DNA from: a bacterium
GTDB taxonomy: Bacteria; CAIWAD01
Reading direction: 5' to 3'
NCBI GenBank assembly: GCA_030429345.1
Contig: JAUIFJ010000012.1
Coordinates: 19,898-83,897 of the forward strand
DNA length: 64,000 nucleotides
The notes under the pieces were generated by a model. It searched no databases, was not told where the DNA came from, and saw only the letters and a program-made list of their open reading frames with translations. Positions 2,700 through 49,947 of the stretch are shown here, piece by piece. The first letter of the stretch is position 1; each line of letters begins with the position of its first letter. Both the position numbers and the translations under genes were made by a program.

Positions 2700-3110
2700 A
2701 TGAAGAAGAAGACCTGGCGGAACATTCACAAGTACGCCTTCGGCTATTACAAGCTGGTCAGCCTCTTCATCAGCGTGCTGATGCTGATCATCTGTTTGAC
2801 AGGGATCTTGTACAACCATCACCACGACCTGGACTTCCTGCGCAGCTGGCGGGTGCCGACGGTCGTCCTGCCGGATGGCTACCAGGAACGGCTGGATCGC
2901 ACGCGCGCGGCACAAGGCATGACGGAGCTCTTTCCGGAGGAAGCCAGCAGCGTGCCGATCATGTGGCTGGTGATCGACCTGCACAATGGGGTCTTCTTCG
3001 GTGAGACCTTTGGACGATTTTTCTACGATGCCATCGCCTTGAGCCTGGCGGTGCTTTCACTGAGCGGCATCGTGCTCTATTTCCAGATTCGAAGCAAACA
3101 CAGATTCTGA
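2700..3110 (+). CDS. hypothetical membrane protein, PepSY-associated TM helix-like
   Basis: Two predicted TM helices flank a soluble segment. The product assignment is weak. Confidence 0.4.
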   Translation: MKKKTWRNIHKYAFGYYKLVSLFISVLMLIICLTGILYNHHHDLDFLRSWRVPTVVLPDGYQERLDRTRAAQGMTELFPEEASSVPIMWLVIDLHNGVFFGETFGRFFYDAIALSLAVLSLSGIVLYFQIRSKHRF

Positions 3111-3123
3111 AAAGGACAAGATC

Positions 3124-3591
3124 ATGCGCAAGACACGTGTACTGCTGATTCTTCTGCTGGCGGGCCTCTTCTCCACCCTGCAAGCCGCGGACTATACGCT
3201 CAGCCAGCTCAGTTCGAAGATCGACAGGGTGCAGAACCAGGAAATCGTGCTGACCGGCAATGTGCTCGGCTGCTGCAAGAGCGGCTGCAAAATGTGGGTC
3301 GGCGAAGGCGAGTATCACGAAGGCGATCCCTTCATCCTGGTGCGCGCCAAGGACGACGCCTTCAAGTTCGACACCAAGGCCTCCGGCAAGACCGTCCGCG
3401 TCACCGGCTACGCCGTCGGCCAGCTGATCGACGCCTGCGCCAACGAAGGCGAGAAACACGCCGAGAACGGCGAGAAGGACGAATGCGCCACTCCCGCCCA
3501 GCAGGCCGGCGCCAAGACGGAGACCGCCAAGGCCGAGCCGGCAAAGGAAAAGGAAATGACCTTCTTCGCTACCAAGGTCGAATACAACTAG
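3124..3591 (+). CDS. hypothetical secreted protein (signal peptide; GCCKSGCKMW Cys cluster; Lys/Glu/Ala-rich tail)
   Basis: N-terminal signal peptide MRKTRVLLILLLAGLFSTLQA. No family was recognised. Confidence 0.45.
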   Translation: MRKTRVLLILLLAGLFSTLQAADYTLSQLSSKIDRVQNQEIVLTGNVLGCCKSGCKMWVGEGEYHEGDPFILVRAKDDAFKFDTKASGKTVRVTGYAVGQLIDACANEGEKHAENGEKDECATPAQQAGAKTETAKAEPAKEKEMTFFATKVEYN

Positions 3592-3687
3592 CGTATTCCG
3601 ACAGACGACAAACAAGAACGCCCCCGCATCGCGGGGGCGTTCTTGTTTGGAGGTCGTTCCGGGTGCAGCCAGTCCGGGTGCGCAACC

Positions 3688-4275
3688 CTATTTCAATTTC
3701 CGCGCCCCTTCCAGCGCGCTGGGCGTCGTGGCCAGTTTGCGTCCCGGCAGGAAGAGGCCGCCGGAGGCGAAGCGCACGTCCTCGACCGTGTAGAAGGCCT
3801 TCGGATTGTACTCGGCGATCTTGCCGGTCATCCAGGGCAGCTGGCTGCGGTTGATCACGCTGAAAAGGATGTGCACGGGCCCCTGCGCCCCCTCGGCGTC
3901 CACGACCGTGACGCTGAAGCCTTCCCCGCGCAGCACGCCGACCAGGCCCTCCGCCGTGCGCGCCGTGACGATACGCACGACCACCTTCCCCATGGCCAGG
4001 CGGTTCTCGATGACGATGCCCAGGTAGTTGCCCAGGGCGAAACCGAGGGCGTAGGCCGCCATGTGCACCGGATTGTCCAGGTGCTGGAAGACCTGGCGGA
4101 TGGCAAGCAGCCAGACCAGGATCTCGAAAAAGCCCAGCGCCGGGGCCAGCAGCTTCATCCCCCGTGAGACAAGAATGATGCGGATCGTTCCCAGGCTCAC
4201 GTCGATCACGCGGGCCACGATGATCAGCAGGGGCAGGATCCCCCAGGCGTAGAGCGGGCCGTCGAAGAGTTCCAT
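3688..4275 (-). CDS. DUF2179/UPF0316-like membrane protein
   Basis: The ORF was trimmed to MELFDG, which has a GGAGG RBS. Two N-terminal TM helices are followed by a soluble C-terminal domain, the usual DUF2179 architecture. Confidence 0.5.
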   Translation of the reverse strand: MELFDGPLYAWGILPLLIIVARVIDVSLGTIRIILVSRGMKLLAPALGFFEILVWLLAIRQVFQHLDNPVHMAAYALGFALGNYLGIVIENRLAMGKVVVRIVTARTAEGLVGVLRGEGFSVTVVDAEGAQGPVHILFSVINRSQLPWMTGKIAEYNPKAFYTVEDVRFASGGLFLPGRKLATTPSALEGARKLK

Positions 4276-6652: not shown

Positions 6653-7894
6653 TCAAACGAGCGCCTGCGGAACTTGGTCCTCGAGCAGGGTCCCGCTTTC
6701 GGGAAAGGGCGCCAGGACCCGCTCCAGCAGCCCATGAAGGGCCGCGATTACCGTTCCGAAATTGCCCAGCGGAACCCGGGCCTCTTCGCAGATCGCCTGG
6801 CGCCTGCGCAGCTCCGCCGGATTCAGCGTGCAGGCTCCGCAATGGACGGCCAGGGCCAGGCCGGCTGGATCCGCGGGAAAATCGTGTCCGCGGCAATGCT
6901 CGAAGCGCAGGCGGACACCGTTGCACTCCTCGAGCCAGCGGGGGAGTTTGACCCGCGCGATGTCCTCTTCGGTCGGATGGTGGGCGCAGGCTTCGGCGAT
7001 CAGCACCCGGTCGCCTTCCCGCAGTCTGCGGGCAGCCCGTGCTCCGCGGGCAAAGCCGGCCAGGTCCCCCTGCAGCCGGGCAAAGAGCACCGAGAAGGTG
7101 CTCAGGGGAACACCTGCCGGTGTATCACGGGCGACGGAGGCCAGGGCCTGCGAGTCGCAAAGCACCAGCTGTGGGGGCTCCCGCATGCAGTCAAGGGCCG
7201 CCGGCAGGTCGGCCGTGTCCGTCGACAGGGCCAGGGCGCGGCGATCCAGCAGTTCCCGCAGGACCCGCGCCTGGGGCATGATCAGCCGGCCCGCCGGGGC
7301 CGCCGAATCCTGGGGCATGACCAGCACCACACGATCCCCGGCCTGGACCAGGCCCTCCAGCGGACTGAGTTGACGTGGTGCGCGTGCCAGCAGGAAATCG
7401 GCCACTTCCTGCCGCAGCTTCTCCAGTCCTTCCGGACGGCGTGAACTGACAGCCAGCGGCTGCAGACACTGCGCGGCCAGTTCGCCGACCGCCGATGGGT
7501 CCGGGCCTCCCCGGTCCGCCTGGCTGAAGAGCGGCAGGACGGGCAGGCCGCGTCGGCGGCAGGTGGCCAACAGGTCCTGCTCTGCCCGGCCCCAGACGCC
7601 CGGCGGAATCAGCAGCAGCACGAGGTCCGCACTCTCCAGCGCTTTCCAGGTCCTGCCGGCGCGCTTCCCCCCCAGGGGACTGTTGTCTTCCAGGCCGGCC
7701 GTGTCGATCATCAATACCGGACCGAAGGGGCGCCACTCCATTCCGCGGCGCACGGGATCCGTCGTCGTGCCGGGCGTGTCCGCGACCAGGCTTGTCTCAC
7801 GCCTCGTCAGGGCGTTCATCAGGGCGGACTTGCCGGCGTTGCAGCGGCCCGTCAACACGATGTGGGGCCGCATGCTGTTGGGAGTGTGTTGCAT
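6653..7894 (-). CDS. hydF: [FeFe]-hydrogenase H-cluster maturation GTPase HydF
   Basis: An N-terminal P-loop GTPase block (HIVLTGRCNAGKSALMNAL, DTPGTT, DTAGL) is combined with the C-terminal FeS motif CAHH-x45-HCGAC (CxHx44-53HCxxC). The start was chosen at MQHTPNS. Confidence 0.8.
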   Translation of the reverse strand: MQHTPNSMRPHIVLTGRCNAGKSALMNALTRRETSLVADTPGTTTDPVRRGMEWRPFGPVLMIDTAGLEDNSPLGGKRAGRTWKALESADLVLLLIPPGVWGRAEQDLLATCRRRGLPVLPLFSQADRGGPDPSAVGELAAQCLQPLAVSSRRPEGLEKLRQEVADFLLARAPRQLSPLEGLVQAGDRVVLVMPQDSAAPAGRLIMPQARVLRELLDRRALALSTDTADLPAALDCMREPPQLVLCDSQALASVARDTPAGVPLSTFSVLFARLQGDLAGFARGARAARRLREGDRVLIAEACAHHPTEEDIARVKLPRWLEECNGVRLRFEHCRGHDFPADPAGLALAVHCGACTLNPAELRRRQAICEEARVPLGNFGTVIAALHGLLERVLAPFPESGTLLEDQVPQALV

Positions 7895-7964
7895 GGCTCT
7901 TCCGGCGCGTGAAGCATGGCGGCACTCGCGATGCCGACCACCGTGGTCCACCTGCCCGTTCCCT

Positions 7965-9383
7965 CTAGAAGTACAGATCCCGGACTTCCGTCTCACGCAG
8001 TTCCTCCAGCCGCAGGACCAGCTTGCGCTTGAGCGGGCCTTCTTTCATCTCCTTCAGGGAGCGGGCGATGCAGCTCTCGCCGGCCTTGCGCGTCTGGGGG
8101 CCGGCATAGTCCTGCAGGTACTCGCAGAGCGTCAGCAGCCCGTTCGGGGTGCAGTACTGCTCGATGAAGCCGGGAATCGCGTACTCCATGAACTCCTCGC
8201 CGGTGCGGCCCACGCGGTAGCAGGCCGTGCAGAAGCTGGGAATGTGGTCATGGGCCAGCAGGTCGTGGATCACCTCGTCCAGGCTGCGCATGTCGCCCAG
8301 TTCGAACTGCTCGCGGTCCAGGTGCTGCACCGCCCGTTCGCGCGTGTAGCCGCCCAGCTCGATGCAGCTGCCGGCGTCGATCTGTGAGACACCCAGCTCG
8401 AGCGCCTCGCGGCGCACGCGGGCCGATTCGCGCGCGGTGACGATCAACCCGGTGTAGGGGACGGCGCAGCGCAGGATCGCCGTCAGGCGCAGGAAGTCCT
8501 CGTCGCCGACCCGCCAGGGAAAGGCCTCCTTCAGGCCCGAGGCCGGCTGAAGGCGCGGCACGCTGATCGTGTGCGCTCCCACTCCGTAGCGTTCCAGCAG
8601 GTAGCGGCTGTGGGCAACCAGTCCGAGCACCTCGCCCCTCCAGTCGGAAAGGCCGAAGAGTACGCCGATGCCCACGTCCTCGCAGCCCGCCTCGAAGGCG
8701 CGGCTCAGGCTGTCCAGCCTGTACTGGTAGTCCCCCTTGCGGGTCTGCGCCGGATGCACGCGGGCATAGCTTTGCGGGTCGTAGGTCTCCTGAAAGATCT
8801 GCCAGGTTCCGATGCCCGCCTGAACGACTTCGCGGAAACCGTCGTGATCCATGGGAGCCGCGTTGATGTTCACGCGCCGGATCTCGCCCCGGCCTTCACG
8901 GATCCTGTAGACGGATTCCACGGTTTCGGCGATGTAGCGGGCGTCGTAGTCGGGGTGCTCGCCGAAGACCAGGATCAGCCGCTTGTGCCCCTGTCGCTGC
9001 AGCGCGCGCACCTGGGCTTCCAGTTCCTCCGGTTCCAGGCTTTGGCGCTGAGCCTCGCGATTGCTTCGGCGGAAGCCGCAATAGCTGCAGTCGTTGACGC
9101 ACTCGTTGCCGACATAGAGCGGAGCGAAAAGCACGATCCGGTTTCCGTATACGTCGCGCTTCAGTTGCCGCGCCGTGGCGAGAATCCTGTCGATCTGGCG
9201 CGGCTCGGATGCGCGCAGCAGGCAGGCGGTCTGTTCGAGATCCAGGGGGGTCCTGGCAAGACTTTGCTGCAGGATCTCTTCCAGTCGCGCGTCCTCGACC
9301 GCGCCCTGTTCGGCCAGCAGATCCGGGATCCGCGCCTCGGCAATGAAGTCCCGCGAGTTCCGGGACAAACGACCCTTCTGCAT
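7965..9383 (-). CDS. hydG: [FeFe]-hydrogenase maturase HydG, radical SAM tyrosine lyase
   Basis: A radical-SAM CVNDCSYCGF (CX3CX2C) motif is combined with the C-terminal HydG-specific CTACYR...C (CX2CX22C) auxiliary-cluster motif. The start at MQKGRLS has a GGAGG RBS. Confidence 0.85.
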   Translation of the reverse strand: MQKGRLSRNSRDFIAEARIPDLLAEQGAVEDARLEEILQQSLARTPLDLEQTACLLRASEPRQIDRILATARQLKRDVYGNRIVLFAPLYVGNECVNDCSYCGFRRSNREAQRQSLEPEELEAQVRALQRQGHKRLILVFGEHPDYDARYIAETVESVYRIREGRGEIRRVNINAAPMDHDGFREVVQAGIGTWQIFQETYDPQSYARVHPAQTRKGDYQYRLDSLSRAFEAGCEDVGIGVLFGLSDWRGEVLGLVAHSRYLLERYGVGAHTISVPRLQPASGLKEAFPWRVGDEDFLRLTAILRCAVPYTGLIVTARESARVRREALELGVSQIDAGSCIELGGYTRERAVQHLDREQFELGDMRSLDEVIHDLLAHDHIPSFCTACYRVGRTGEEFMEYAIPGFIEQYCTPNGLLTLCEYLQDYAGPQTRKAGESCIARSLKEMKEGPLKRKLVLRLEELRETEVRDLYF

Positions 9384-9622
9384 AGCGCCTCCTGATTTGT
9401 TAATAATTTCACATGAAGCAAGTCCTTCGCCTTGCGTCAGATCAAGCGGGGACGCTTTTTCAGGAGGCATTTTCGGGCACCGCCAAAGGGTCGCCAGAAA
9501 CCGCGGGACGCGAAAGGAAAAAGGGTTCTCCTTCTTTCATCGCCCCGTCACTTGACGAAAGGCAAGAACACGATCCGCGGGCGCTCTAACTTGGGTGCAC
9601 CTTAGCAAGCATGGGAGGAAGC

Positions 9623-10147
9623 ATGGCCGTCAAGGAACTCCACTTCAATTCGGTGGAAGAGATTTTCAAGTACGCCATCACGGTGGAAAACCGCGGATTC
9701 GAGTTCTATCGCAATGCCGCCGAGCGCACGAGCAATGATACCGCGCGCCAGTTCTTCGAGGAGTTTGCCGAGGAAGAGCGCGAGCACAAGCGCGTGCTGG
9801 CCGAACTCTACAAGACCTGGAAGGCCGAAGGGAAGTGGAAGGATGACGTCCTGCGCGAGGAACACAAGCACGGCATGGACATCCACGACCCGATCATCGG
9901 CCAGGCCATCCGCAAGGGACTGGCCAGCGACAGCTACGACACGACCGCCGTGGACATTGCCATCGTGCTGGAGAAAGAGGCCAGCGCCTTCTACAGCACG
10001 GCTGCCGACCGCGTCGAGGACCCGGAACTGCAGCGCATCCTGCGCTGGCTCGCCGAGTGGGAAGACGACCACCTGCGCTACATGGTGGAACTGAACGAGA
10101 GCCTGCGCGAGACCTATTGGAACGACAACAACTTCTGGCCCTTCTAA
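9623..10147 (+). CDS. rubrerythrin/ferritin-like diiron domain protein
   Basis: Paired EExxH-type motifs (EFAEEEREH, WEDDH) sit in a four-helix-like sequence. A GGAGG RBS precedes the ATG. It is divergent from hydG. Confidence 0.55.
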   Translation: MAVKELHFNSVEEIFKYAITVENRGFEFYRNAAERTSNDTARQFFEEFAEEEREHKRVLAELYKTWKAEGKWKDDVLREEHKHGMDIHDPIIGQAIRKGLASDSYDTTAVDIAIVLEKEASAFYSTAADRVEDPELQRILRWLAEWEDDHLRYMVELNESLRETYWNDNNFWPF

Positions 10148-10290
10148 GGGGCGAATCCGCATCTGTGTTTTCCGCGGCCGGCCTTGCCGGCCGCGTCTGC
10201 TCCATCCACTTCTGATCCCTCAACGGTTGATTGCCATTTCAGACAAGCTTTGATTCCTTTGCCCAGTCGCCCAACAAGCCGGAGACCCAG

Positions 10291-11985
10291 ATGAAACCTT
10301 TGCTGCTCGCGCTGCTACTCGCGCAGGCCGGACACCTCCATGCCGAACACGCCATCGGTTCGACCCCGGCGGATTTCAGTGGAACACCGACCCGTCCCCA
10401 GGAATTCGGAAACAACTGGTCGCTGTCGGACCACCAGGGAAAGGTGGTGCTGGTCAATTTCGGCGCCATCTGGTGACCGGGCTGCAATTCGGAGTTTCCG
10501 CATTTACAGAACGACTTTGAAAGCGCCTACCCGGAAGAATTCTTCGAGCTGGTCCACGTGGATGTGGACAATCGCCCGGCCTCCGGCCTGAACAACCACT
10601 GGGCCCATGACAATCCCACCTTTCCCGTGCTGACCGGCGCCGCGGGCATTTTCGGCGCCTGGGGCACGGGCTACATTCCCCATACGACCATCCTGGACCC
10701 CCAGGGCGTGGTTCGCGGCAACTGGGTCGGCTGGAGCAGTTCCGCCGGCAACGCCATGCACTCGGTGATCCAGGCCTGGCTGCCCGCACCCGCGGAGCCG
10801 GAAGTCGCGGCGCTGCATTTTTCCGGCGACGCCAACAATGATGCCCACCCGGATCCCGGCGAGCTCTTGCAGCTGGAACTCGTGCTGGCCAATCCGGCCG
10901 GCCTGCAAGGCGCCCAGAACCTGAGCTGCAACCTTGAAACCGCCGGCCCCTGGCTGACGGTGACCCAGGCCCAGACCTTCGCGGACCAGCTGCCCGGCGG
11001 CGGCCAGACAGCCTGCGCACCGCTGCTGGTACTGCAGGTCGATCCGGCGTCTCCGCGTCACACGGCCCAGCTGCAGTTCAGCTGGAGCGCGACCGGAGCG
11101 CAGGGCGAAGCCCTTTCCGGAAGCTTCAGCGCGCCGCTGGACGTCGCGCGGCACCCGCTGCTCGTCGTCGATCGTGATCCAGCCTACGACGAGGCCGGTC
11201 CCGTGATCGCCGCCCTGGACCAGCTCGGCCTTGCCTACGACCTGTGGACCGGCGGCTGCGCGGACCAGCCGAGTGATTCGCTCAAGTCCTGGAACACGGT
11301 GCTCTGGCTGGGCGGCCGACAGTTCCCCGCCCTGGACGAGGCCGACCTCTTCCAGGCTCGACTTCATGTCTCACAAGGTCGTCGGTTCTTCCTGTCCGCA
11401 CAGCATCTGCCGTCCGCGGCAGCCGACCTGGCGGAGATCTTCGCCATCCAGGAGGGCGCATTCGCCCCGGGACCGATCCTGAGCGGCGTGCCCGGATCGC
11501 CCTTCGAGAACGGCTTCTGCCAGCTCAACACACCCGGCGGCGCGCAGAACAGCATTCATCCCAACGAGCTGCTCCTGCTGGAAGGGGCCGAATCGCTCTT
11601 CGACTGGGCCCCCGGACCGGGAGCCGCGCTTGCCGGAAGACGAGACGCGACGGGACGGGCGCTCTGCGCGGCTTTTCCCCTGGAGGCTGTCGGCACGCAG
11701 ATCGAAGGCTGGGTCACCATTCCGGAGCTGCTTTCGGAATGCCTTGCCTGGCTGGACCAGCCTCAGGAACTGCCTGCGCCGCATCTTGAGATCCAGCGCC
11801 TTGCGGACGGGAGCCTGCGCCTGCAATGGAACAGCATCCCTGGCGCAGCGGGCTATCATGTCTGGACCGGGACGCATCCTTTCCAGGTCGGCTCCTTGCT
11901 CGACACGACGCCGGATACCACGTATACACTCCCCGCGCCTTCTGCCGGCATGGCGGGCTACCGCGTGGAGGCCAGCATCGACTAG
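10291..11985 (+). CDS. TlpA/ResA-like thiol:disulfide oxidoreductase, predicted selenoprotein (W-U-P-G-C; in-frame TGA at 10474-10476), fused to a large unknown domain and a C-terminal FN3-like module
   Basis: The ORFs 10231..10476 and 10558..11985 are in the same frame with no other stop between them. The TGA falls exactly at the first Cys of the thioredoxin motif (VVLVNFGAIW-[TGA]-PGCNSEFPHL). A signal peptide MKPLLLALLLAQAGHLHA and a GGAGA RBS are present. Confidence 0.7.
10486..10504 (+). promoter_or_regulatory. SECIS-like hairpin downstream of the UGA (AAUUCGG-AGUUU-CCGCAUU, loop at +17..+21)
   Basis: The stem-loop was folded by eye. It has the same geometry and loop sequence as the hairpins after the other two in-frame TGAs. 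Confidence 0.4.
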
Positions 11986-12015
11986 CCTGGGTCGCAATTC
12001 ACTTCTGCACCCTTC

Positions 12016-12050
12016 GAAAACCCTTTGCAGCCGCGAAGGGTTTTCTTTCC
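12016..12050 (+). terminator. rho-independent terminator after the first TlpA-like selenoprotein gene
   Basis: The hairpin GAAAACCCTT-tgcagccgcg-AAGGGTTTT is followed by a CTTTCCTTTCC run. Confidence 0.5.
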
Positions 12051-12191
12051 TTTCCCTTCGCCAACCCCTGGCCGGATTCAGCGGCGCCGCCCTCCCCTGT
12101 GCCTGCTGAACCTATCGTGGGCATCGTCCTGCGTGTCCCGACATTCCATGCACACGACGCAAACCCTTGTACACAGCTCAGAGGTTACTTG

Positions 12192-12905
12192 ATGAAAAGC
12201 CTGATTCCGGCCCTGCTGCTGGTTCCCCTGCTGGCAGCCCGGGCCGAGTACCCCGCGGGATCGACCCCGCCCGATTTCACTGGAACGACAACCCAACCAG
12301 GCCTCTACGGCCCGGAGTGGACCCTCTCCGATCAGGCCGGCAAGATCGTGCTGCTGCATTGGGGCGCCTGGTGGTGACCGCCCTGCAATGCGGAGTTTCC
12401 GCAGCTGCAGAACCAGATCCGCGAGTTCTATCCGGAGGACGTGCTGGCCATCGCTCATGTGGAGATCACGACCCAGAGCGCCTCTTTCCTCAATAACCAC
12501 TGGGGGCAGTACGATCCGACCTTTCCGCTGTTGACCGGCCTGGACAATCTCTGGCCGGCCTGGACCGTCAACGGGCTGCGTCCGCTGGTGACGATCCTGG
12601 ATCCGCAGGGCGTGGTCGTCGGCAACTGGACCTCCTACACGGAGAGCCACATTGACGACTTCCGCACTGCCATCGACTCGCTGCTTCCCCTGGAGGCACC
12701 GGTACTGTCCATCGAGCGCATGGCCAATGGCATGCTGCGGCTGCACTGGACGGAAGTGGAAGGAGCCGGCAGCTATCGTCTGCTGCAGGCAGCCACTCCC
12801 TGGCAGGAAGGCATCGAGCTGATCCAGACTCCCCTGTTCGAACATGTGCTTGCCGCGCCCGCGCCCGGCCGCGGCTGGTTCCAGGTGGAAGCCCTGGCCC
12901 CCTGA
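12192..12905 (+). CDS. TlpA/ResA-like thiol:disulfide oxidoreductase paralog, predicted selenoprotein (W-U-P-P-C; in-frame TGA at 12375-12377) with a C-terminal FN3-like module
   Basis: The ORFs 11826..12377 and 12441..12905 are in the same frame and are joined across HWGAWW-[TGA]-PPCNAEFPQL. The start at MKSLIPALLL has a signal peptide and a GAGG RBS. Sec is at residue 62, as in the upstream paralog. Confidence 0.7.
12383..12410 (+). promoter_or_regulatory. SECIS-like hairpin (CUGCA-A-UGCGG-AGUUU-CCGCA-GC-UGCAG, loop at +17..+21 after UGA)
   Basis: The stem-loop was folded by eye and has about 10 bp of stem. Confidence 0.45.
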
Positions 12906-12928
12906 GTCAACACGCATCCAGGCATTCT

Positions 12929-12961
12929 GCCCTGCCCTCCACCTGGAGGGCAGGGCTTTTT
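12929..12961 (+). terminator. rho-independent terminator
   Basis: The hairpin GCCCTGCCCTCC-acct-GGAGGGCAGGGC is followed by TTTTT. Confidence 0.6.
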
Positions 12962-13000
12962 CAATCCGTGAACAAATTCGACTGAATTCTGTAATCACTC

Positions 13001-13029
13001 TTGACGACAACACTTTCAGCTGTTATCAT
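13001..13029 (+). promoter_or_regulatory. sigma70-like promoter for the TrmB-family gene (TTGACG-17 nt-TATCAT)
   Basis: The -35 and -10 hexamers match consensus and the spacer is 17 nt. The site lies about 25 nt upstream of the GAGGAG RBS. Confidence 0.45.
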
Positions 13030-13055
13030 ATCGCCTGACGACAACCGAGGAGAAG

Positions 13056-13955
13056 ATGTCAGACAAAGACATTACAGATGCCCTGATCGCCCTGGGCGCT
13101 CGCGAACAGGAAGCCCGCTTCTACCTGGAACTGGTGCGCCGTCCGGAATTGACCGCCGGCGACCTGCACCGCATCACCGGCGTCAATCGTCAGCGTACCT
13201 ACGCCCTGCTCAATGAAATGGTCGCCCGCGGTTTCTGTCGCGAGCGGACGGGCGAAAAGCATCGCTACTACCGCGCCCATCCTCCGCAGCAGCTGCTGGA
13301 GCGTCTGGAGCGCGAACTCGCTCAGCAGAAGGACCGAGCGCGCCGCACCTATGGCCTGCTCGAGGAGATCTACGCCGACAACCGGGACCCGGAAAGCGGC
13401 GGCGAGCTGGTGCAGGAAATCCGCGATCCGGAGCAGATCAATGCCGCCTTCCTGCGGCTGAATCGCGAAGCCCGGGAAGAGATCCTCAGCTTCAATCGCA
13501 GCCCCTACTCCAGCAATGATCCCGGCTTTCACGAAGAGCAGCTGCGCGTCGGCGAGGAATGCCTGGCCCGCGGCGTGCGCTTCCGCACCCTGAACATGAT
13601 GGAACCCGACCAGCTTCCCTGGCTCTATCCGGCGATCAAGCAGATCGACGAACGGGGGGATCGCGACATCCGCGTTTGCGAATACCTGCCGCTGAAGCTC
13701 TTTCTCTTCGACCGCCAGACCGTGATGCTGGCCCTGCCCGTCGCCTCCAGCGATTCGGGCATGCAATGCCTGATCCTTTCGGAACCGGGAGTGGCCAAGG
13801 CCTTCCTGATGCTCTTCGAAATGGAATGGGCCCGGGCAATGAGCCTGGAGGAATGGGACCGACAGTTCGCCTACCAGCCCCCCGGCGAAAACGGCAAGGA
13901 AAAGAAAGCCACCGCCATCAACCTGGCAAGGCAGGAAGAGGGCGGCGGCTCCTAG
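13056..13955 (+). CDS. TrmB family transcriptional regulator
   Basis: The N-terminal wHTH matches TrmB (ALGAREQEARFYLELVRRPELTAGDLHRITGVNRQRTYALLNEMVARGF). The long C-terminal effector domain is consistent with the family. Confidence 0.7.
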   Translation: MSDKDITDALIALGAREQEARFYLELVRRPELTAGDLHRITGVNRQRTYALLNEMVARGFCRERTGEKHRYYRAHPPQQLLERLERELAQQKDRARRTYGLLEEIYADNRDPESGGELVQEIRDPEQINAAFLRLNREAREEILSFNRSPYSSNDPGFHEEQLRVGEECLARGVRFRTLNMMEPDQLPWLYPAIKQIDERGDRDIRVCEYLPLKLFLFDRQTVMLALPVASSDSGMQCLILSEPGVAKAFLMLFEMEWARAMSLEEWDRQFAYQPPGENGKEKKATAINLARQEEGGGS

Positions 13956-14450: not shown

Positions 14451-14453
14451 CAG

Positions 14454-14525
14454 TGACCCCTAGGGGAATCGAACCCCTGTTGCAAGAATGAAAATCTTGA
14501 GTCCTAACCACTAGACGAAGGGGCC
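14454..14525 (-). tRNA. tRNA-Glu (anticodon TTC)
   Basis: A manual cloverleaf fold on the reverse-complement strand. The acceptor stem is GGCCCCT/AGGGGTC, the anticodon stem is CAAGA/TCTTG with loop TTTTCAT, and the T-arm is GGGGTTCGATTCCCC. Confidence 0.8.
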
Positions 14526-14540
14526 GGGAATACGATCAAG

Positions 14541-14615
14541 GGTGGAAGAAGGGACTTGAACCCTCGACCTCCTGGGCCACAACCAGGCGCTCTAACCAGC
14601 TGAGCTACATCCACC
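14541..14615 (-). tRNA. tRNA-His (anticodon GTG, with an encoded G-1)
   Basis: A manual fold. The anticodon stem is CCTGG/CCAGG with loop TTGTGGC. The D-arm is GCTCAGCTGGTTAGAGC and the T-loop is TTCAAGT. Confidence 0.75.
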
Positions 14616-14629
14616 ATCTGTGAGAACAA

Positions 14630-14703
14630 CGCGCCCGGAAGGACTCGAACCTTCAACCTACGGCTTAGAAGGCCGTTGCTCTATCCGGTTGAGCTACGGG
14701 CGC
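14630..14703 (-). tRNA. tRNA-Arg (anticodon TCT)
   Basis: A manual fold. The acceptor stem GCGCCCG/CGGGCGC pairs perfectly. The anticodon stem is ACGGC/GCCGT with loop CTTCTAA. Confidence 0.8.
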
Positions 14704-14737
14704 CGCACAGGGACTCGGGTAGCTTTCGTGCCCGGAA

Positions 14738-14811
14738 TCGGGGCGATAGGATTTGAACCTACGACCTCCTGCTCCCAAAGCAGGCGCGCTACCGGGCTGC
14801 GCAACGCCCCG
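14738..14811 (-). tRNA. tRNA-Pro (anticodon TGG)
   Basis: A manual fold. The acceptor stem is CGGGGCG/CGCCCCG. The anticodon stem is CCTGC/GCAGG with loop TTTGGGA. The T-arm is GGTTCAAATCC. Confidence 0.8.
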
Positions 14812-28780: not shown

Positions 28781-28986
28781 TTCTTGCCTCTTCCGTTGGT
28801 GAGTGCCGCTTCCCGCGGCAGAACCTGACACTTATCGACCGCCTGGCCGTCCATGTCCAGAAGGTAGGGCATCGGGATCATGCTCAAATACGAGGATCTT
28901 CGTATGGCAGGCCCGTCGTGCAAGCTCCTACTTGGGGCGCATCATGGAAACCAGCACGGTTTCCTCGCAACAGAATGGAATGCCCC

Positions 28987-30219
28987 ATGAAAACTGCACT
29001 CGGACTGCTTTGGCTGGGCTTCTGCCTGCCTGCCGCCCATGCCGACTGGGAGGCCGTGCACGATGGTCTGGAGAATCTGGAACTGCGCGCCCTGGTTGCG
29101 TATGCGGACACGGTGATGGCGGGAACGGCCGACGGCATCTTCCGCAGCCAGGACGGCAGCAGCTGGACGGACATCAGCGGCAACCTGGCCATGCGCGATG
29201 TCCAGGGCTTGTGGGGCGGCGGCGCACCCCGCGTGCTTTGGGTCGCCACTTTCGATGGCGTTTACCAGACCGTCAACCACGACCACTACGACAACAACAC
29301 CGGCAGCGGCCTGGGTACGGCGGATGCCCACTACTACTGGTTCGGCGACACATCGGAGGAAGCCACCGAATGCGCCGTCGGAACCAATGGCGCAGGTCTC
29401 TATGTTGGCGCGGACTGGGGCGGCCCCTGGACGGCGCGCAACAACGGCCTGACCGGCGATGCCCTGGTGGTCAACAACATGAGCGGCTACTCGGACGACG
29501 ACTTCGACGGAGCTTACCTCTGCACCGAAGGCGGCCTCTTTCTCTCGACGGACAACCTGGCCAGCTGGAGCTCCCTGAACCGCAACCTGAGCGGCGACCA
29601 GCTGCATGTCAATGCCGTGCTCGGTTTCGGCACGGTCGAGATGATCGCCACGGACGCAGGCTTTCTCTACAGCCTGGAAGGTGCGGACTGGGCGCCCCTC
29701 GTCGAGGATGACGGGGTCTTCAATGTCTTCGCCCTGTACCCCATGCAGGGAATCGGCCTGGCCTTCGGCACGAACGGCTATGTGACCTTCGACAACTTCA
29801 GCTACATCCCCGTCGACATGGGCGGCGTCAGCGGCGGCCTGGTGACCTGCGCCACGGTTACTTCCACGCATATCTATGTCGGTACGGAAACCGGCGGCGT
29901 CTTCCGCACGCCGATCGACGCGGTCTCGGTCGGCGAACAGGCTCCCCGCCCCGAAGGCTTCCGCCTGGCGCAGAACACGCCCAATCCCTTCAACCCTGTG
30001 ACACGGATTCCCTACGAGCTGGCCCATCCCGCCCGTATACGGCTCCAGGTCCACGACCTGCTCGGCCGCCGGGTGGCCCTCCTCGACCAGGGCCTGCGCG
30101 AAGGCGGCCGGCACCAGCTGAATTTCGACGGCAGCGGCCTGGCCAGCGGGATCTACTTCTATTCCCTGGAAGTGGATCACGAGATCCGCGCCACGCGGCG
30201 CATGCTGCTCAGCAAATAG
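28987..30219 (+). CDS. secreted beta-propeller (BNR/sialidase-like repeat) protein with a T9SS C-terminal domain
   Basis: A signal peptide MKTALGLLWLGFCLPAAHA is present. Repeated S-x-D-x-G-x-x-W motifs are visible. The C-terminus reads NTPNPFNPVTRIPYEL...GIYFYSL...RMLLSK. Confidence 0.6.
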   Translation: MKTALGLLWLGFCLPAAHADWEAVHDGLENLELRALVAYADTVMAGTADGIFRSQDGSSWTDISGNLAMRDVQGLWGGGAPRVLWVATFDGVYQTVNHDHYDNNTGSGLGTADAHYYWFGDTSEEATECAVGTNGAGLYVGADWGGPWTARNNGLTGDALVVNNMSGYSDDDFDGAYLCTEGGLFLSTDNLASWSSLNRNLSGDQLHVNAVLGFGTVEMIATDAGFLYSLEGADWAPLVEDDGVFNVFALYPMQGIGLAFGTNGYVTFDNFSYIPVDMGGVSGGLVTCATVTSTHIYVGTETGGVFRTPIDAVSVGEQAPRPEGFRLAQNTPNPFNPVTRIPYELAHPARIRLQVHDLLGRRVALLDQGLREGGRHQLNFDGSGLASGIYFYSLEVDHEIRATRRMLLSK

Positions 30220-30394
30220 TCCCGCCCTCTCATGGGCGGCAACCGGCGGCGGGAATGGTCTACATTCCTTGCGGGGAAACAGTCGGTTGCCGCCCTCTTC
30301 CAGGCCACTACAGTCTGTTTTTCGAAAACGAGAACGGGGCCCCGCAAGGGGCCCCGTTCGTGTTGGAAGAGGTGGTCCAGCACCTGTGGCAGGG

Positions 30395-31981
30395 TTACTT
30401 GACCAGTGTCAGGGACTGAATGCTGCGCTGGCGATTGCTCTCCAGCAGGGCGATGTAGCGGCCGCTGGCCAGTCCGGAAGCGTTCCAGACCAGGCTGTGG
30501 CTGCCGGCCTGCAGGCCGCCTTCATACAACACGCTGACCAGCTGGCCCTGCAGGTTGTATACGGCCAGGCGTGCATCGCCGGACTGCGCCAGCTCGAACC
30601 TGAGGCTGGTGGTCGGGTTGAAGGGGTTGGGATAGGCCGGGTTGATGTGGACGCCGTCCGGACGGCTCAGCTCCTGGCCGACCGACGTCAGCTGGCCCAG
30701 CTCGATCGCGACATCGCCGGCTCCCGGCGCGTCCACGGTGGCCCAGGCGCCCAGGGTGCTGTTGGCCAGCGTTCCCGTGGCCCAGACCGTGTAGGTGGTA
30801 CCGGCCATCAGCTCGACCGGCTCGAAGGCAAGCACCACGTCCTGGGTGCCCGCCAGGCGGACTTCCAGGTCGTAGGCCATCGGCATCACCGGCGTATACA
30901 TGGCGGATTCGTTGAATTCGATGTCGCCGAAGAGCACGGTGCCGTCGGCCAGAGTGATGTCGACTGCCGGGGCATCGGCACCGGTGTGCACGAAACGGAC
31001 CCAGGCTTCGTCAGGGTCGGTGAGGCGCGTGTCGCTCAGGACCACGGGGCCGAAGCTCTCGTCGGCCAGCAGGCCGGTGGCGGCCACGGTGGTGGCGCTG
31101 CCCGCGGCGAAGTCGAGGGTGGCGTCGATCACGGGATCGGTGGTCGTGCCGGCGACGAAGACCTGCACGTTGCGGCTGCCGGCCATGATGTCCAGGTAGG
31201 GACTGAAAGCGGGATAGCTCACGTCGCTGAGCACTTCCGCGCCGTCCAGCCAGACATCGACGGCGGGAGCGTCCTCGCTCAGGTGCGCCACGCGCAGGCT
31301 GGTGCCCAGCACGCTCAACTCCTGCGCCTCATCCCCCGGGCCCGGGGCGTCTACGGTCGCCCAGGCGCCCAGTGTGCCGTCGGCAAGCGTCCCTTTGGCC
31401 AGAACGGAATAAGTCGTGCCCTGGTCCAGGGAAACCGGCTCGAAGGAAAGTACGACGTCCTCTGTCCCCGCAATGCGGACCTGCAGGCTGTAGCTGCCGG
31501 GGTGCACGGGGGTATAGTCGATAAACTCGTTGAACTCGACATCCTCGAAAAGCACCGTGCCATCCGCAAGGGTGATGTCTACGGCGGGGGCGTCCGCCGC
31601 CGTGTGGACAAAGCGGACCCAGGCCATTGAAGGATCGGTGTCGCGCGTATCACTCAGGACCAGAGGACCGAAGCTGTCGTCGGACAGCAGCCCGGTAGCG
31701 GCCACAGTCGTTGCGCTGCCTTCAGCGAAATCGAGGGTGGCGTCGATCACAGGATCCATCGAAGTACCCGTGGCGAAAACCTGCACCTGGTGCATGCCGG
31801 CATCGATATCCTGATAGCCGCTGAAAGCGCCGTAGGGCACATTGTTCAGGACAACGGAACCATCCAGCCACACATCCACGTTCGGGGCGTCCGGGCTTAC
31901 ATGAGCAACGCGCAGATCCGCACCCTGGGCCGCCAGAGGCAATGCCAGACCTGCTACAAGAAATGCTTTCCAGTTCATCAT
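30395..31981 (-). CDS. tandem DUF4397-domain secreted protein with a T9SS C-terminal domain
   Basis: Two nearly identical halves are present (LRVAHxSxDAPxVDVWLDG...ATLDFAxGSATTVAATGLL). The C-terminus reads AYPNPFNPTTSLRFEL...GRYIALL. Confidence 0.7.
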   Translation of the reverse strand: MMNWKAFLVAGLALPLAAQGADLRVAHVSPDAPNVDVWLDGSVVLNNVPYGAFSGYQDIDAGMHQVQVFATGTSMDPVIDATLDFAEGSATTVAATGLLSDDSFGPLVLSDTRDTDPSMAWVRFVHTAADAPAVDITLADGTVLFEDVEFNEFIDYTPVHPGSYSLQVRIAGTEDVVLSFEPVSLDQGTTYSVLAKGTLADGTLGAWATVDAPGPGDEAQELSVLGTSLRVAHLSEDAPAVDVWLDGAEVLSDVSYPAFSPYLDIMAGSRNVQVFVAGTTTDPVIDATLDFAAGSATTVAATGLLADESFGPVVLSDTRLTDPDEAWVRFVHTGADAPAVDITLADGTVLFGDIEFNESAMYTPVMPMAYDLEVRLAGTQDVVLAFEPVELMAGTTYTVWATGTLANSTLGAWATVDAPGAGDVAIELGQLTSVGQELSRPDGVHINPAYPNPFNPTTSLRFELAQSGDARLAVYNLQGQLVSVLYEGGLQAGSHSLVWNASGLASGRYIALLESNRQRSIQSLTLVK

Positions 31982-34274: not shown

Positions 34275-36056
34275 CTACTTGAGAAGCAGAAGGCTGCGCG
34301 TCCGGCGTTCTCCGCCCGCGCGCAGCTCGATCCAGTAGCGTCCGCTGGATAGCCCGTCCAGCTCAATCGGCTGCTCATGGAATCCGGCGGGCAGCTGCCC
34401 CAGGTCGAGCTGCAGGCGCATCGCCCCGCGCAGGTCGAAGAGTCGGAGCTGCACCGGCAGCGCGCGCACCAGCGTGAAAGGCAGCTGCACGCGCCCGTTG
34501 AAGGGATTGGGATAGGGCGCGGCAAGACTCAGCAGCGCCGGCCGGGTCGGCCTGTCGTCCCCGCCTTCGACCCCCGTCTCGACGGGGGTGAAAACGACCT
34601 CGAACACGCCGCCGCTTCCCGCGGGCAGGTCCACCAAAAGGGTCTCGGCGTCAAAGGCGCTCCAGGGCTCGCCCTCGTGCATCACGGACAGGATCTCCAG
34701 GCTGCCCGCCTCGTGCGCGATCGGCGAGAGGCGCACGACCCGCGGCTCGTCGGAGTGCTCGAAGCGATAGAAAAGGCGCGCCTCTTCCCCGTGCAGCAGC
34801 AGGCTGCTGTAGAGATAGGTGTAGTAGCCCAGCTCCATGGAATGGTAGCCCGCCTTGTAGCCGTTGCCCTTCGTGGTTCCCCAGGTCTCCTCGCCACGCC
34901 GTGTGCGGTCCGCGTAGACCTCGCCGTAGACGTGATCCACGAAGTGCTCCATGAAGAAGGCGCTGCTGCCCTGGGCCATCTCCAGGTAGTCCGGCGAAGG
35001 ATCCAGCCCCTGCAGCATCAGCCCGGCCATGACTCCCTGCTCCATCTGCCACCAGGCCTTGGTGGTGTCCGGATTTCCCCACATCAGCATCTCGCCGCTC
35101 AGGCGGTTGTAGTCCTTGTAGGGACCGCCGTAGTCATGGTCATAGCCGTTGTCCCACACCTCATCGAAGAGGGTCCGCGCCGCGTCCAGGTACTCCGGAT
35201 TGCCGGTCAGCCGGTAGACGCGGCCCAGGCACCAGGAGGTCTTGAGCACGTGTCCCATGATGGTCATGGTCTCGCCGTTGTCCACGTTCCAGTCCGCGTC
35301 GAAGACCTCGGCGAAACCGATCGCCTGTCCGGGCATGGAGCCGACCAGGTGGTCGATCATCTGCCCGCAGAGCTCCTCCAGGCGCTCGAGGCTCCCGGGA
35401 TCCAGCCCCATCAGCTGGCTGAGCAGGACATGGGTCGTGACCGCGTCCACTGTGGCGTTGAAGCTCTTGCCGACGGGGTTCAGGCCCGTGCGTGAGACAT
35501 TGTCGTAGTAGCCTTCAAGGCCGGGACGATCATCCCAGAAATGCTCTTCGAGCCAGGCGGATCCTTCTTCCACGGCCTCCAGCCAGAGTTCGCCCGCCGT
35601 GGCCTCGATGGCGGCGGCATAGCCCAGCAGGGCATAGTGCTGGTCGAAGGCGTTCTTCCCGGCCCAGGGATTGACGGGTTCTCCCTGGCTGTCGAGCTGG
35701 GAAAACCAGCCACCGTATTCCTCGTCCCAGCCGTGTTCGGCGAGCCAGGCCAGGCCCTGCTCCGCGCGGTCCAGCCAGGCCTCGTTCCCCGTGAGCATGA
35801 AGGCCCGCACATAGCCGTAGGCGTTGCGGGCCTGGGTCAGCATGTTCTTGGCGCTGCCCGTCGGCTGCCCCTGGCGGTTGACGTCCGTATACCAGCCGCC
35901 TCCCTGGGCGTCCCAGGAATCCTCCCAGAACACGGCGCAGCTGTCTACATAGCCGATGTTGAGTTCCGGATTCGTGATGTAGGGACTGCTGAACTGGGCC
36001 CGCGCAGGCAGGACGCCGCTTGCGGCCAGCAACAGGAAAAGAAGGATGCGATGCAT
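34275..36056 (-). CDS. N-acylglucosamine 2-epimerase (AGE) superfamily (alpha/alpha)6-barrel protein with a T9SS C-terminal domain
   Basis: A signal peptide is present and the aromatic-rich six-hairpin repeats are typical of the AGE/cellobiose-epimerase fold. The C-terminus reads PYPNPFNGRVQLPFTL...GRYWIEL...LLLLK. Confidence 0.65.
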   Translation of the reverse strand: MHRILLFLLLAASGVLPARAQFSSPYITNPELNIGYVDSCAVFWEDSWDAQGGGWYTDVNRQGQPTGSAKNMLTQARNAYGYVRAFMLTGNEAWLDRAEQGLAWLAEHGWDEEYGGWFSQLDSQGEPVNPWAGKNAFDQHYALLGYAAAIEATAGELWLEAVEEGSAWLEEHFWDDRPGLEGYYDNVSRTGLNPVGKSFNATVDAVTTHVLLSQLMGLDPGSLERLEELCGQMIDHLVGSMPGQAIGFAEVFDADWNVDNGETMTIMGHVLKTSWCLGRVYRLTGNPEYLDAARTLFDEVWDNGYDHDYGGPYKDYNRLSGEMLMWGNPDTTKAWWQMEQGVMAGLMLQGLDPSPDYLEMAQGSSAFFMEHFVDHVYGEVYADRTRRGEETWGTTKGNGYKAGYHSMELGYYTYLYSSLLLHGEEARLFYRFEHSDEPRVVRLSPIAHEAGSLEILSVMHEGEPWSAFDAETLLVDLPAGSGGVFEVVFTPVETGVEGGDDRPTRPALLSLAAPYPNPFNGRVQLPFTLVRALPVQLRLFDLRGAMRLQLDLGQLPAGFHEQPIELDGLSSGRYWIELRAGGERRTRSLLLLK

Positions 36057-36112
36057 GTGAACCTCGAAGTGGGAAGCGCTTGCCTCAGTCTGCGCCTTGT
36101 CCAGGCGGCCCG

Positions 36113-36787
36113 TTATTCCTCGGCCCCGGCGGCGATCATGCTGCGGGCAGCCTGCAGCAGCAGTTCCGGCTGCAGGCGGACCCGGTAGTCCGGATTGGCG
36201 TAGACGAAATGAAGGACCCCCTCGCGATCCACCAGGAACACGGCCGGTACTGGCAACTGGTGATGATCACGCCCCGAATCGGCCTCCAGGTCGATGTCGA
36301 AGGACTCCTTGTACTTTCGAACCAGGCTCTCCTCCACCTGGAAGGCAATGCCCATGGCGCGCGCCGCACGCATGTCGCTGTCGGAACACAGCAGGTAGCC
36401 CACACCCTCCTCGACTGCTGTATCACGCTGTTTCCCGGGGCGATCCGGGCTGACGGCGATCACCTGGCAACCCAGGGCAAGCAGTTCGTCCTCGATCTCC
36501 TGCAGCTCTCCCAACTGGAGAGTGCAGTAGGGTCACCAGCCGCCGCGGAAGAAGACGAGCACGGTCGGCTTCTTCGCCCACAGGCTGTCCAGGAGTACCT
36601 CCGAGCCATCGGCGAGCCGCAGCTGCAGAGCAGGGATCTGCGTACCGACCAGGCGCGGGCAGATCTGCTCCGCCGAATCGGCGACGGGGTGCTGCCCAGT
36701 ACTCAGTGCCCTTGCCGCGAAGGGCATGAGCAGGAATCCCAGGGCGACAAGAAGTCGAATGGAACCCAGCGACACCTTCATCTTCAT
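36113..36787 (-). CDS. periplasmic peroxiredoxin-like (AhpC/TSA, PRX-like) protein, predicted selenoprotein (W-U-P-Y-C; in-frame TGA at 36533-36535)
   Basis: The ORFs 36533..36823 and 36113..36514 are in the same frame with no other stop. The TGA falls at the peroxidatic Cys position of FFRGGW-[TGA]-PYCTLQLGEL. The signal peptide MKMKVSLGSIRLLVALGFLLMPFAARA has an AAGGAA RBS. Confidence 0.7.
36502..36525 (-). promoter_or_regulatory. SECIS-like hairpin (GCA-CUCUCC-AGUUG-GGAGAG-C-UGC, loop at +17..+21 after UGA)
   Basis: The stem-loop was folded by eye on the mRNA strand. Confidence 0.45.
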
Positions 36788-36899
36788 TTCATTCCTTTCG
36801 TCCGAAGGCAGGTACTGCGGCATCCGCGCCTATCTGGGCCATCGATGCCCGGCCAGTCGGAATACTGTATCACCGTGGCCCGGGCTGCCCCTCGGCAGG

Positions 36900-39599: not shown

Positions 39600-39728
39600 G
39601 AGCGACTCCGGATTTGCTGCCCAAGAAGGCATTTCCGCATCAGGCTCTGCGTGCTTGACATGATTGACGGAAACCACCTTATATACAACCCCGGCAACCC
39701 CACGAAAACCGACTGGAAGACTCAGACC

Positions 39729-46290: not shown

Positions 46291-46348
46291 ATGGGTCTCC
46301 GGTGAATTCTTTCGTCCGAGATTTCTCTGTTTGCGTATGCATGCAGCC

Positions 46349-48700: not shown

Positions 48701-48947
48701 GAGGTTCTCCTGCGCTGTGTCCCTTTTTGCAAAGGTTGCTGTGTTCTTGAGGATGAGGAAGAGCAGACAGAACCGCAAGGACTGATCCGGACAACCGAAA
48801 ACAGCGTCGCGATCGATCGCCGGCTCACCCGGCTACGCCTTCACTGGATTTCCGGTATTGGTCGAAGGCGATGCGTGGTCGATTTTCCCTGTAGGCGAAT
48901 TGACATGCCTCATGGCGAATCCGGATCCCTTTCGTCTGCTTGACCGG

Positions 48948-49910: not shown

Positions 49911-49947
49911 AGGCAAGAGCGCGTTTCGAAGAAGAGGAGTTCCCGGC

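Follow-up and report, generated by a model that had tools for sequence, protein, structure and literature searches.

Three genes in a 64,000-nucleotide stretch of contig JAUIFJ010000012.1 (positions 19,898 to 83,897 of the forward strand; assembly GCA_030429345.1; the whole stretch is called the window here) are each interrupted by an in-frame UGA codon, and each UGA is followed at the same distance by an RNA hairpin with an AGUU(U/G) apical loop. Sequence comparison makes it very probable, in our view, that the three genes encode selenoproteins and that the hairpins act within their reading frames as bacterial selenocysteine insertion sequence (bSECIS) elements. For gene B and the peroxiredoxin-like (Prx-like) gene the evidence is strong; for gene A it is acceptable but marginal, resting mainly on homology. 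A preliminary description of this DNA, made by folding the sequence by eye, had proposed candidate bacterial SECIS elements at these sites, and the prediction gains support from the fit to the published consensus, from orthologues, from the contrast with cysteine-type genes and from a covariance model.

Three exported redox proteins are interrupted at the first cysteine of CxxC

Genes A and B are TlpA/ResA-like paralogues and the third gene is of the AhpC/TSA type (Table 1). One TGA only interrupts each of the three otherwise open frames, and it stands at W-U-x-x-C (U in a peptide denotes selenocysteine, Sec), that is, at the first cysteine of a CxxC motif. The peptide contexts are GAIW-U-PGC in gene A, GAWW-U-PPC in gene B and RGGW-U-PYC in the Prx-like gene. 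All three proteins have signal-peptide-like N-termini and match both the AhpC-TSA and the Redoxin models of Pfam, those of genes A and B above cut-offs (gene A, 7e-11 for AhpC-TSA and 2e-9 for Redoxin; Prx-like protein, 2e-23 for AhpC-TSA). In the thioredoxin domain, genes A and B share 48% identity. In an alignment of gene A with its relatives, the UGA column holds TGA in gene B, in an orthologue (L002) and in a metagenomic fragment (L125), and Cys in both paralogues of another contig (L124). In all likelihood, as the alignments suggest, the three UGA genes encode thioredoxin-fold selenoproteins, two of them paralogous TlpA/ResA-like proteins and one a peroxiredoxin-like CxxC protein.

The TGAs could instead be real stops, the genes being pseudogenes or each of them two separate open reading frames. 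Public gene calls do break all three genes at the TGA (P0001, P0021 and P0022; 61-amino-acid calls in L001), and TGA is a normal stop codon here: it terminates 11 of the 31 predicted genes of the window, so the code has not been globally reassigned. Three independent genes are nevertheless cut exactly at the first Cys codon of CxxC, and the downstream pieces have no catalytic motif of their own. Codon bias, moreover, runs on continuously past the TGA (the frame of gene A is intact, with normal codon bias), and orthologues from other samples share the TGA, as do at least 120 metagenomic relatives whose frames are open on both sides. We regard true termination at these codons as extremely unlikely. 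Other in-frame TGAs with coding-like flanks were considered and rejected, as they either mark true gene ends or fall on the strand opposite real genes.

Table 1. Positions in the window of the three genes, their predicted Sec codons and hairpins, and neighbouring features
Feature	Position	Strand	Remarks
Gene A, exported TlpA/ResA-like thiol-disulfide oxidoreductase	10291..11985	+	564 codons; active site W-U-P-G-C
Predicted Sec codon, gene A	TGA 10474..10476	+	in-frame; from alignment to Cys/TGA homologues
Candidate SECIS, gene A	10478..10513	+	core AAUUCGG[AGUUU]CCGCAUU (10486-10504) within an interrupted longer stem; weakest of the three
Apical loop AGUUU, gene A	10493-10497	+	
Gene B, exported TlpA/ResA-like paralogue	12192..12905	+	237 codons; active site W-U-P-P-C
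Predicted Sec codon, gene B	TGA 12375..12377	+	in-frame
Predicted SECIS, gene B	12383..12410	+	CUGCA-A-UGCGG[AGUUU]CCGCA-GC-UGCAG; upper stem begins 11 nt past the TGA
Apical loop AGUUU, gene B	12394-12398	+	
Prx-like gene, AhpC/TSA, CxxC-type exported protein	36113..36787	-	224 codons; active site W-U-P-Y-C
Predicted Sec codon, Prx-like gene	TGA 36533..36535	-	in-frame; kept in the 79%-identical orthologue L003
Predicted SECIS, Prx-like gene	36500..36527	-	CUGCA-CUCUCC[AGUUG]GGAGAG-C-UGCAG
Apical loop AGUUG, Prx-like gene	36516-36512	-	
HydG/HydE-like (radical SAM + BATS) and HydF-like [FeFe]-hydrogenase maturases	6653-9470	-	adjoin the A/B cluster
Rubrerythrin gene	9611-10147		upstream of gene A
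TrmB-like regulator	13056-13955		downstream of gene B
tRNA cluster Glu-UUC, His-GUG, Arg-UCU, Pro-UGG	14453-14811	-	four tRNAs, none of them tRNA-Sec

A hairpin loop begins at the same distance from each UGA

In all three genes the loop starts 17 nt past the last base of the TGA, i.e. after a 16-nt spacer, and both the UGA coordinates and the loop register were found exactly as first described. The hairpins themselves begin 6-12 nt downstream of the TGA. Their uninterrupted stems are 6 bp long in gene B and in the Prx-like gene and 4 bp in gene A, with loops of 3-5 nt; for genes A and B, RNAfold pairs the A and U that close the loop, which leaves a computed loop of GUU instead of AGUUU.

Thermodynamic folding, which the preliminary description had named as a check, bears out two of the hairpins. 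The gene B 28-mer folds at -14.8 kcal/mol (z = -3.7, equalled by none of 200 shuffled sequences) and the Prx 24-mer at -11.9 kcal/mol (z = -2.4), and each is contained in the minimum free energy (MFE) fold of its 63-nt context. Extending the Prx stem-loop to CUGCA/UGCAG brings it to -17.0 kcal/mol. The gene A core did not pass the same check, and its energies are weighed below.

To set a background, we folded the 45 nt that follow each of the remaining 1,331 TGA triplets of the window, both strands included. An MFE hairpin of -8 kcal/mol or lower with GU at +17..+19 was found for about 2.3% of these triplets, and about 0.9% had a hairpin of -14 kcal/mol or lower. Against such a background, hairpins at three of three in-frame UGAs are far beyond chance, with the reservation that genes A and B are paralogous and hence not independent. 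A 45-nt MFE profile dips by only about 3 kcal/mol at the UGA; the dip is shallow because GC-rich coding RNA folds everywhere, and the profile was consequently replaced by counts of uninterrupted stems. The G+C content of the window is 65%. At gathering thresholds, the four tRNAs were the only Rfam matches in the window, and no family matched around the three sites at E <= 5; this negative carries no information on function, with the limit that whether Rfam holds a fitting bacterial SECIS family was not checked.

In the Prx-like family the hairpin accompanies the predicted Sec codon

The Prx-like protein has 974 homologues at E <= 1e-10, nearly all of the best 120 being full length. All nine full-length homologues that were read (among P0024-P0055, 45-58% identity) have WCP(Y/F)C. 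A truncated homologue on contig L003 (P0039) is 79% identical to the window protein and keeps both the TGA and the hairpin; of its two nearby substitutions, one affects a bulged base, and through the other a C-G pair becomes U-G. We scanned metagenome contigs with a pattern consisting of the upstream peptide, TGA and P-[YF]-C, leaving the hairpin region unconstrained. This yielded at least 120 Sec-type Prx-like loci (L004-L123), all of them FYRGGW-U-PYC, with frames open for about 90-130 codons on either side of the TGA. An uninterrupted stem of at least 6 bp centred within +12..+27 was present in 90% of the 116 distinct Sec-type sequences, as against 17% of 2,251 control positions taken in frame from these genes. 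Five Cys-type Prx homologues (those of L126-L129 and the Cys copy on L079) had no such stem; their best ones were of 3-4 bp.

The Sec-type sequences fall into two registers. In the first (about 32 of the 116), an AGUU(A/G) loop occupies +17..+21 on stems that differ from one gene to another (GCGCCG/CGGCGC, GCGCAG/CUGCGC, GGGCCG/CGGCUC, UCGGC/GCCGA, UCAGC/GCUGA and CUCC/GGAG). In the second (about 62), a GGN loop lies at about +21/+22 on stems of the CGCAGCU(G/C)/(C/G)AGCUGCG type, palindromic in CAGCUG. Compensatory stem changes are seen in both registers, and the window element belongs to the first. Pairing and covariation were then scored in 46 sequences picked only for AGUU at +17. The six-pair helix around the loop was paired in 68.5% of cases, compared with 41.5 +/- 2.5 in shuffles, none of which matched it in 500 attempts. 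Covariation reached 0.543 as against 0.171, with controls slid along the sequence at 0.24 or below, and both sides changed in all six pairs. The covariation that the preliminary description had suggested looking for is thus found in the Prx-like family; it does not extend to the TlpA-like sequences.

Three further observations concern this family. The Cys-type genes examined carry H-L at the place taken by Q-L...Q/E-L in Sec-type Prx genes. On one metagenomic contig, L079, a Sec-type and a Cys-type Prx-like paralogue stand in tandem (6360 and 6938-7087); the Sec copy has an in-register MFE hairpin, weak (45-nt MFE -8.5), with a loop starting in GG about 24 nt past the TGA, and the Cys copy has a stem of 4 bp only. 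Finally, in 39% of the metagenomic Sec-type Prx genes a stem centred 9 nt upstream of the TGA is possible, UUACCG pairing with UGGUGA. Such a stem could sequester the UGA. It was treated as a selection artefact, since the motif UAC-CGN...UGG-UGA is fixed by the search pattern itself (Y-R…W-U), and it is absent from the Prx gene of the window; it may nevertheless serve as a lower SECIS stem.

A covariance model ranks the three sites first

A covariance model was built from 18 metagenomic Prx-like elements of the first register, with the window sequences excluded, and searched without filters against both strands of the window. Its three best hits in the whole window were the Prx site (38.3 bits, E = 1.7e-10), the gene A site (19.9 bits, E = 1.6e-4) and the gene B site (17.3 bits, E = 1.1e-3), in that order. 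The fourth hit, at 61331-61355 on the forward strand (CUGCACCAGGC[AGUUG]GCCAGG; 13.7 bits, E ~0.015), is preceded by no TGA and runs antisense to an argC-like gene, and is therefore probably due to chance.

Sec-type and Cys-type relatives of genes A and B

Relatives of genes A and B are few. When 5.8 billion proteins were searched through a word index, only fragments from the window itself and distant TlpA-like proteins came back, and a scan of species-representative genomes gave a single gene A orthologue, L002, at 35-49% amino-acid identity. This orthologue keeps the TGA and, in the +17 register, the hairpin CUGCAAUGCGG[AGUUU]CCGCAUCUGCAG (-13.8 kcal/mol, z = -4.6), which is nearly identical to that of gene B. 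The metagenomic fragment L125 encodes another Sec-type member (P0144), reading W-U-PAC-N-T-E-F-P, with the GGAGUUUCCGCA core in the same +17 register. Retention in orthologues, a further check put forward in the preliminary description, was accordingly observed in L002 and L125 as well as in L003 of the Prx-like family, each with TGA and hairpin.

Contig L124, by contrast, carries a Cys-type pair of the gene A family (269-2347 and 2906-3847; P0143, an orthologue of gene A, and its neighbour) with the sequence WCGPC-N-S-E-F-P, in which WCGPC stands at the UGA column. Both genes read GAG UUC CCC UA(U/C) and not GAG UUU CCG CA, and the stem cannot form. The GGAGUUUCCGCA core is therefore invariant in four of four Sec-type genes and altered in two of two Cys-type genes. 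These six, four Sec-type and two Cys-type, are all the members of the A/B clade in the collections searched, which makes it a very small one. The tandem on L124 mirrors that of A and B, which suggests an old duplication that may have been followed by a switch between Cys and Sec in some lineages.

The subfamily placement of genes A and B is loose, because the NCBIfam ResA and TlpA models match them below cut-offs only. The model for a ResA-like WAxxUGC selenoprotein (NF041054) was tried and rejected: it scores 18.5 bits against a cut-off of 300 bits, and instead of U-G-C the two genes have the motif W-U-P-G/P-C. A C-terminal extension of about 400 amino acids, matching no Pfam family, is present in gene A and its orthologues (window 10770-11985; L002 3440-4728; also L124). 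The extension ends in an FN3-like module (…LRLQWNSIPGAAGYHVW…), which also forms the C-terminus of gene B (12690-12905), and the second Cys-type paralogue on L124 ends instead in a sorting domain (Por_Secre_tail) of the type IX secretion system (T9SS).

Comparison with known SECIS elements and selenoprotein families

A 2026 review that summarises the bSECISearch model of Zhang and Gladyshev 2005 gives a bSECIS consensus (PMC13188914): the apical loop has 3-9 nt and the upper stem 4-16 bp; one of the first two bases of the loop is G, usually with G or U after it (mostly N1-G-[G/U]-N-N2, with N1 and N2 pairing); 16-37 nt separate the UGA from the loop; and the MFE is -7.5 kcal/mol or lower. All three hairpins of the window lie directly 3' of an in-frame UGA inside the coding region. 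The loops AGUUU, AGUUU and AGUUG obey the rule for G, and AGUUU fits N1-G-[G/U]-N-N2 exactly, as its A and U pair. The spacing of 16 nt (for a 5-nt loop) or 17 nt (for a GUU loop) is at the lower limit of the range. Gene B and the Prx-like gene are within the energy threshold; gene A is marginal (-8.5 kcal/mol for the extended stem-loop, -2.7 kcal/mol for the core), and its uninterrupted upper stem of 4 bp is the allowed minimum. Concerning the contrast between Sec and Cys, L002, L003 and L125 keep the hairpin and seven Cys-type genes are without it; concerning covariation, it is seen in the Prx-like family and not within the four TlpA-like sequences.

The resemblance to the Escherichia coli fdhF element that had been pointed out in the preliminary description is a fair one in geometry. 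In the fdhF SECIS, whose sequence we confirmed against 5,413 genomes, an 11-nt spacer precedes a 17-nt upper stem-loop, and the loop G-U (G23/U24) is at +20/+21. Contact of SelB with the G-U of the SECIS loop is established from work on E. coli and Moorella. The spacer to the upper stem-loop is about 11 nt in gene B and about 10 nt in the Prx gene, and in both systems an adjacent G and U stand in the loop at a fixed distance of about 20 nt from the UGA. The differences are that the G-U of the window elements is at +18/+19, 2 nt nearer the UGA; that the loop is GGUC in fdhF and AGUU(U/G) here; that the bulged U17 has no counterpart in the upper stems of the window; and that the host genes encode thioredoxin-fold proteins here and a formate dehydrogenase there. 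The window elements thus do not belong to the fdhF sequence family but, by analogy, would work as the fdhF element does.

Both protein families have been catalogued. Prx-like thiol:disulfide oxidoreductases (PF00578, UxxC; Kryukov and Gladyshev 2004) are listed as selenoproteins (PMC13188914, PMC1794560), and the window protein shares with them the AhpC/TSA domain, U-x-x-C in place of CxxC, abundant Cys-type homologues and at least 120 Sec-type relatives. It differs in coming from a singleton, uncultivated lineage of 65% G+C, whose proteins are singletons at 90% identity, in being 79% identical to its closest Sec-type relative and in having an AGUUG loop at +17 where most relatives have GGN at about +22. 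Thiol:disulfide interchange or thiol-disulfide isomerase-like TlpA proteins (cd02966, UxxC) are likewise a catalogued selenoprotein family (PMC13188914); genes A and B resemble them in the secreted TlpA/ResA-like fold, in U-x-x-C and in the x-E-F-P that follows the second Cys, and differ from them in reaching no NCBIfam cut-off, in forming a rare clade and in their large C-terminal extensions.

Evidence against the SECIS assignment and alternative readings

Several observations speak against the assignment of the hairpins as bSECIS elements, and we set them out here together with the alternatives on which they bear. In gene A the 19-mer core (-2.7 kcal/mol, z = -1.35) is absent from the MFE fold of the 63-nt context. 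In the fold of the 45-nt context the core does appear, enclosed in a longer stem with interruptions (-8.5 kcal/mol for the stem-loop, -10.0 overall), and it is only through this interrupted lower stem that gene A reaches the consensus energy. Compared with gene B and L002, a G-to-U and a G-to-A change break one upper-stem and one lower-stem pair. The L125 element is likewise weakened, its fold of -6.5 kcal/mol missing the threshold of -7.5 kcal/mol. Among the four Sec-type TlpA-like sequences compensatory change is absent, and the differences in gene A and L125 break pairs. The 19-nt hairpin of gene A (10486-10504) may thus not be the functional element, either because the longer structure (10478-10513) serves in its place or because the element is decaying and Sec insertion is inefficient. 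We give this some credence, although we think it the less probable reading: all four Sec-type genes share an identical GGAGUUUCCGCA core, the open reading frame of gene A is intact with its normal codon bias, and the core hairpin is found within the 45-nt MFE fold.

A different objection is that all the hairpins are by-products of a conserved peptide and of codon bias, with no function at the RNA level. AGUU is simply (G/C)AG followed by UU(N), the codon pair Glu/Gln-Phe/Leu, and since E-F-P is a conserved motif of TlpA and ResA proteins in general, the identity of the loops is partly driven by the protein. The surrounding peptides, C-N-x-E-F-P-x-L-Q in the TlpA-like and L-Q-L-G-E-L-Q in the Prx-like proteins, are also conserved, and self-complementary codon pairs such as CAG-CUG produce inverted repeats automatically. 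GC-rich coding sequence folds well in general, as the dip of only about 3 kcal/mol illustrates. The shared coding prefix UGA-CCN-NNN-UGC supplies part of the covariance-model scores of genes A and B. Nor does conservation at synonymous sites decide the matter. The preliminary description had held that the nucleotides of the two TlpA paralogues are more conserved than the protein requires. Genes A and B do share eight of nine codons in this stretch against a baseline of 58%, and for the four Sec-type members 4 of 7 are conserved as against 9 of 37 (Fisher p = 0.10); the excess, at p ~0.06-0.10, is not significant, and that claim is suggestive only.

What tells against a peptide by-product is the behaviour of the Cys-type genes and of the stems. 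The Cys-type genes that encode C-N-S-E-F-P use UUC CCC, with which no stem is possible, and no stem longer than 4 bp occurs in the five Cys-type Prx genes, compared with the 90% of Sec-type sequences that have at least 6 bp. In the Prx-like family pairing is kept while both the stem sequence and the encoded amino acids vary. Furthermore, rare codons are placed exactly in the loop (UUU makes up 12% of Phe codons and UUG 5% of Leu codons), but UUU also encodes a second Phe, F111, of genes A and B alike. We consequently judge it highly improbable that the hairpins merely reflect the peptide.

The remaining objection concerns the machinery. Neither tRNA-Sec nor any of selA, selB and selD turned up in the 64-kb window or in the Logan-contig extensions of about 11 kb; these extensions (about 6 kb and about 5 kb) hold arginine-biosynthesis and unrelated genes only. 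Such a lack of Sec machinery in about 75 kb of sequence, together with a gene A hairpin too weak to convince alone, would agree with recoding of the UGA by a near-cognate tRNA-Cys or tRNA-Trp, the hairpin acting as a generic stimulator of read-through or as a pause site. The geometry and the loop G-U, however, match the SelB-dependent consensus and the fdhF layout, and both protein families are catalogued as U-x-x-C selenoproteins. We know of no SelB-independent, hairpin-stimulated UGA read-through of this kind established in bacteria, which further lowers the standing of this alternative, and recoding to an amino acid other than Sec appears very unlikely to us.

A proposed model for UGA decoding

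With bSECIS elements as the preferred reading of the hairpins, the mechanism can be taken from the established model for E. coli and Moorella, from which we infer SelB binding, Sec insertion and the presence of the machinery. As a ribosome nears the UGA, SelB, carrying GTP and Sec-tRNA(Sec), would use its C-terminal winged-helix domain to bind the apical G-U of the hairpin 11-12 nt downstream. The ternary complex would be tethered in this way at the A site, so that the UGA would be read as selenocysteine instead of a stop, and the product would contain a U-x-x-C redox centre.

A bolder proposal would combine three elements: that the fixed AGUUN pentaloop at +17 defines a bSECIS subclass used across unrelated thioredoxin-fold families (TlpA-like and Prx-like), that SelB accepts a minimal 4-bp CGGA-GUU-UCCG hairpin (that of A and L125, weaker than consensus models expect), and that the A/B clade is an uncatalogued, very rare TlpA-like subfamily with an extension of about 400 amino acids. 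We regard this combination as unlikely.

Gene neighbourhood

Judged by its gene content, the A/B cluster (9611-13955), in which the two genes are flanked by those for rubrerythrin and a TrmB-like regulator and which adjoins the genes of hydrogenase maturases, looks like an oxidative-stress module of an anaerobe. GC-rich inverted repeats are found after gene B (12930-12962, cctgccctccacctggagggcagggcttttt) and after the rubrerythrin gene (10176-10197, gcggccggccttgccggccgc). On visual inspection both resemble intrinsic terminators, an arrangement that would point to separate transcription units for rubrerythrin and A-B. Elsewhere in the window, three large proteins with FGE-sulfatase (sulfatase-modifying-factor-like) domains are encoded close together (43933-50919), and many neighbouring genes carry C-terminal T9SS sorting domains (e.g. 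28918-31981, 34275-39878 and 54960-55778), which suggests a bacterium of the Fibrobacteres-Chlorobi-Bacteroidetes (FCB) group.

Implications

Both protein families and the hairpin mechanism are already known; the three genes are a further ordinary example of a well-known mechanism, and they leave the current understanding of selenocysteine decoding unchanged. The occurrence of two alternative SECIS registers, with compensatory changes, within one family should be useful for tuning bSECIS predictors. The public annotation, in which the three genes are called as fragments, is wrong, and once UGA is read as Sec, three exported redox enzymes are recovered in full. The presence of these selenoprotein genes implies, in turn, the use of selenium by an uncultivated anaerobe.

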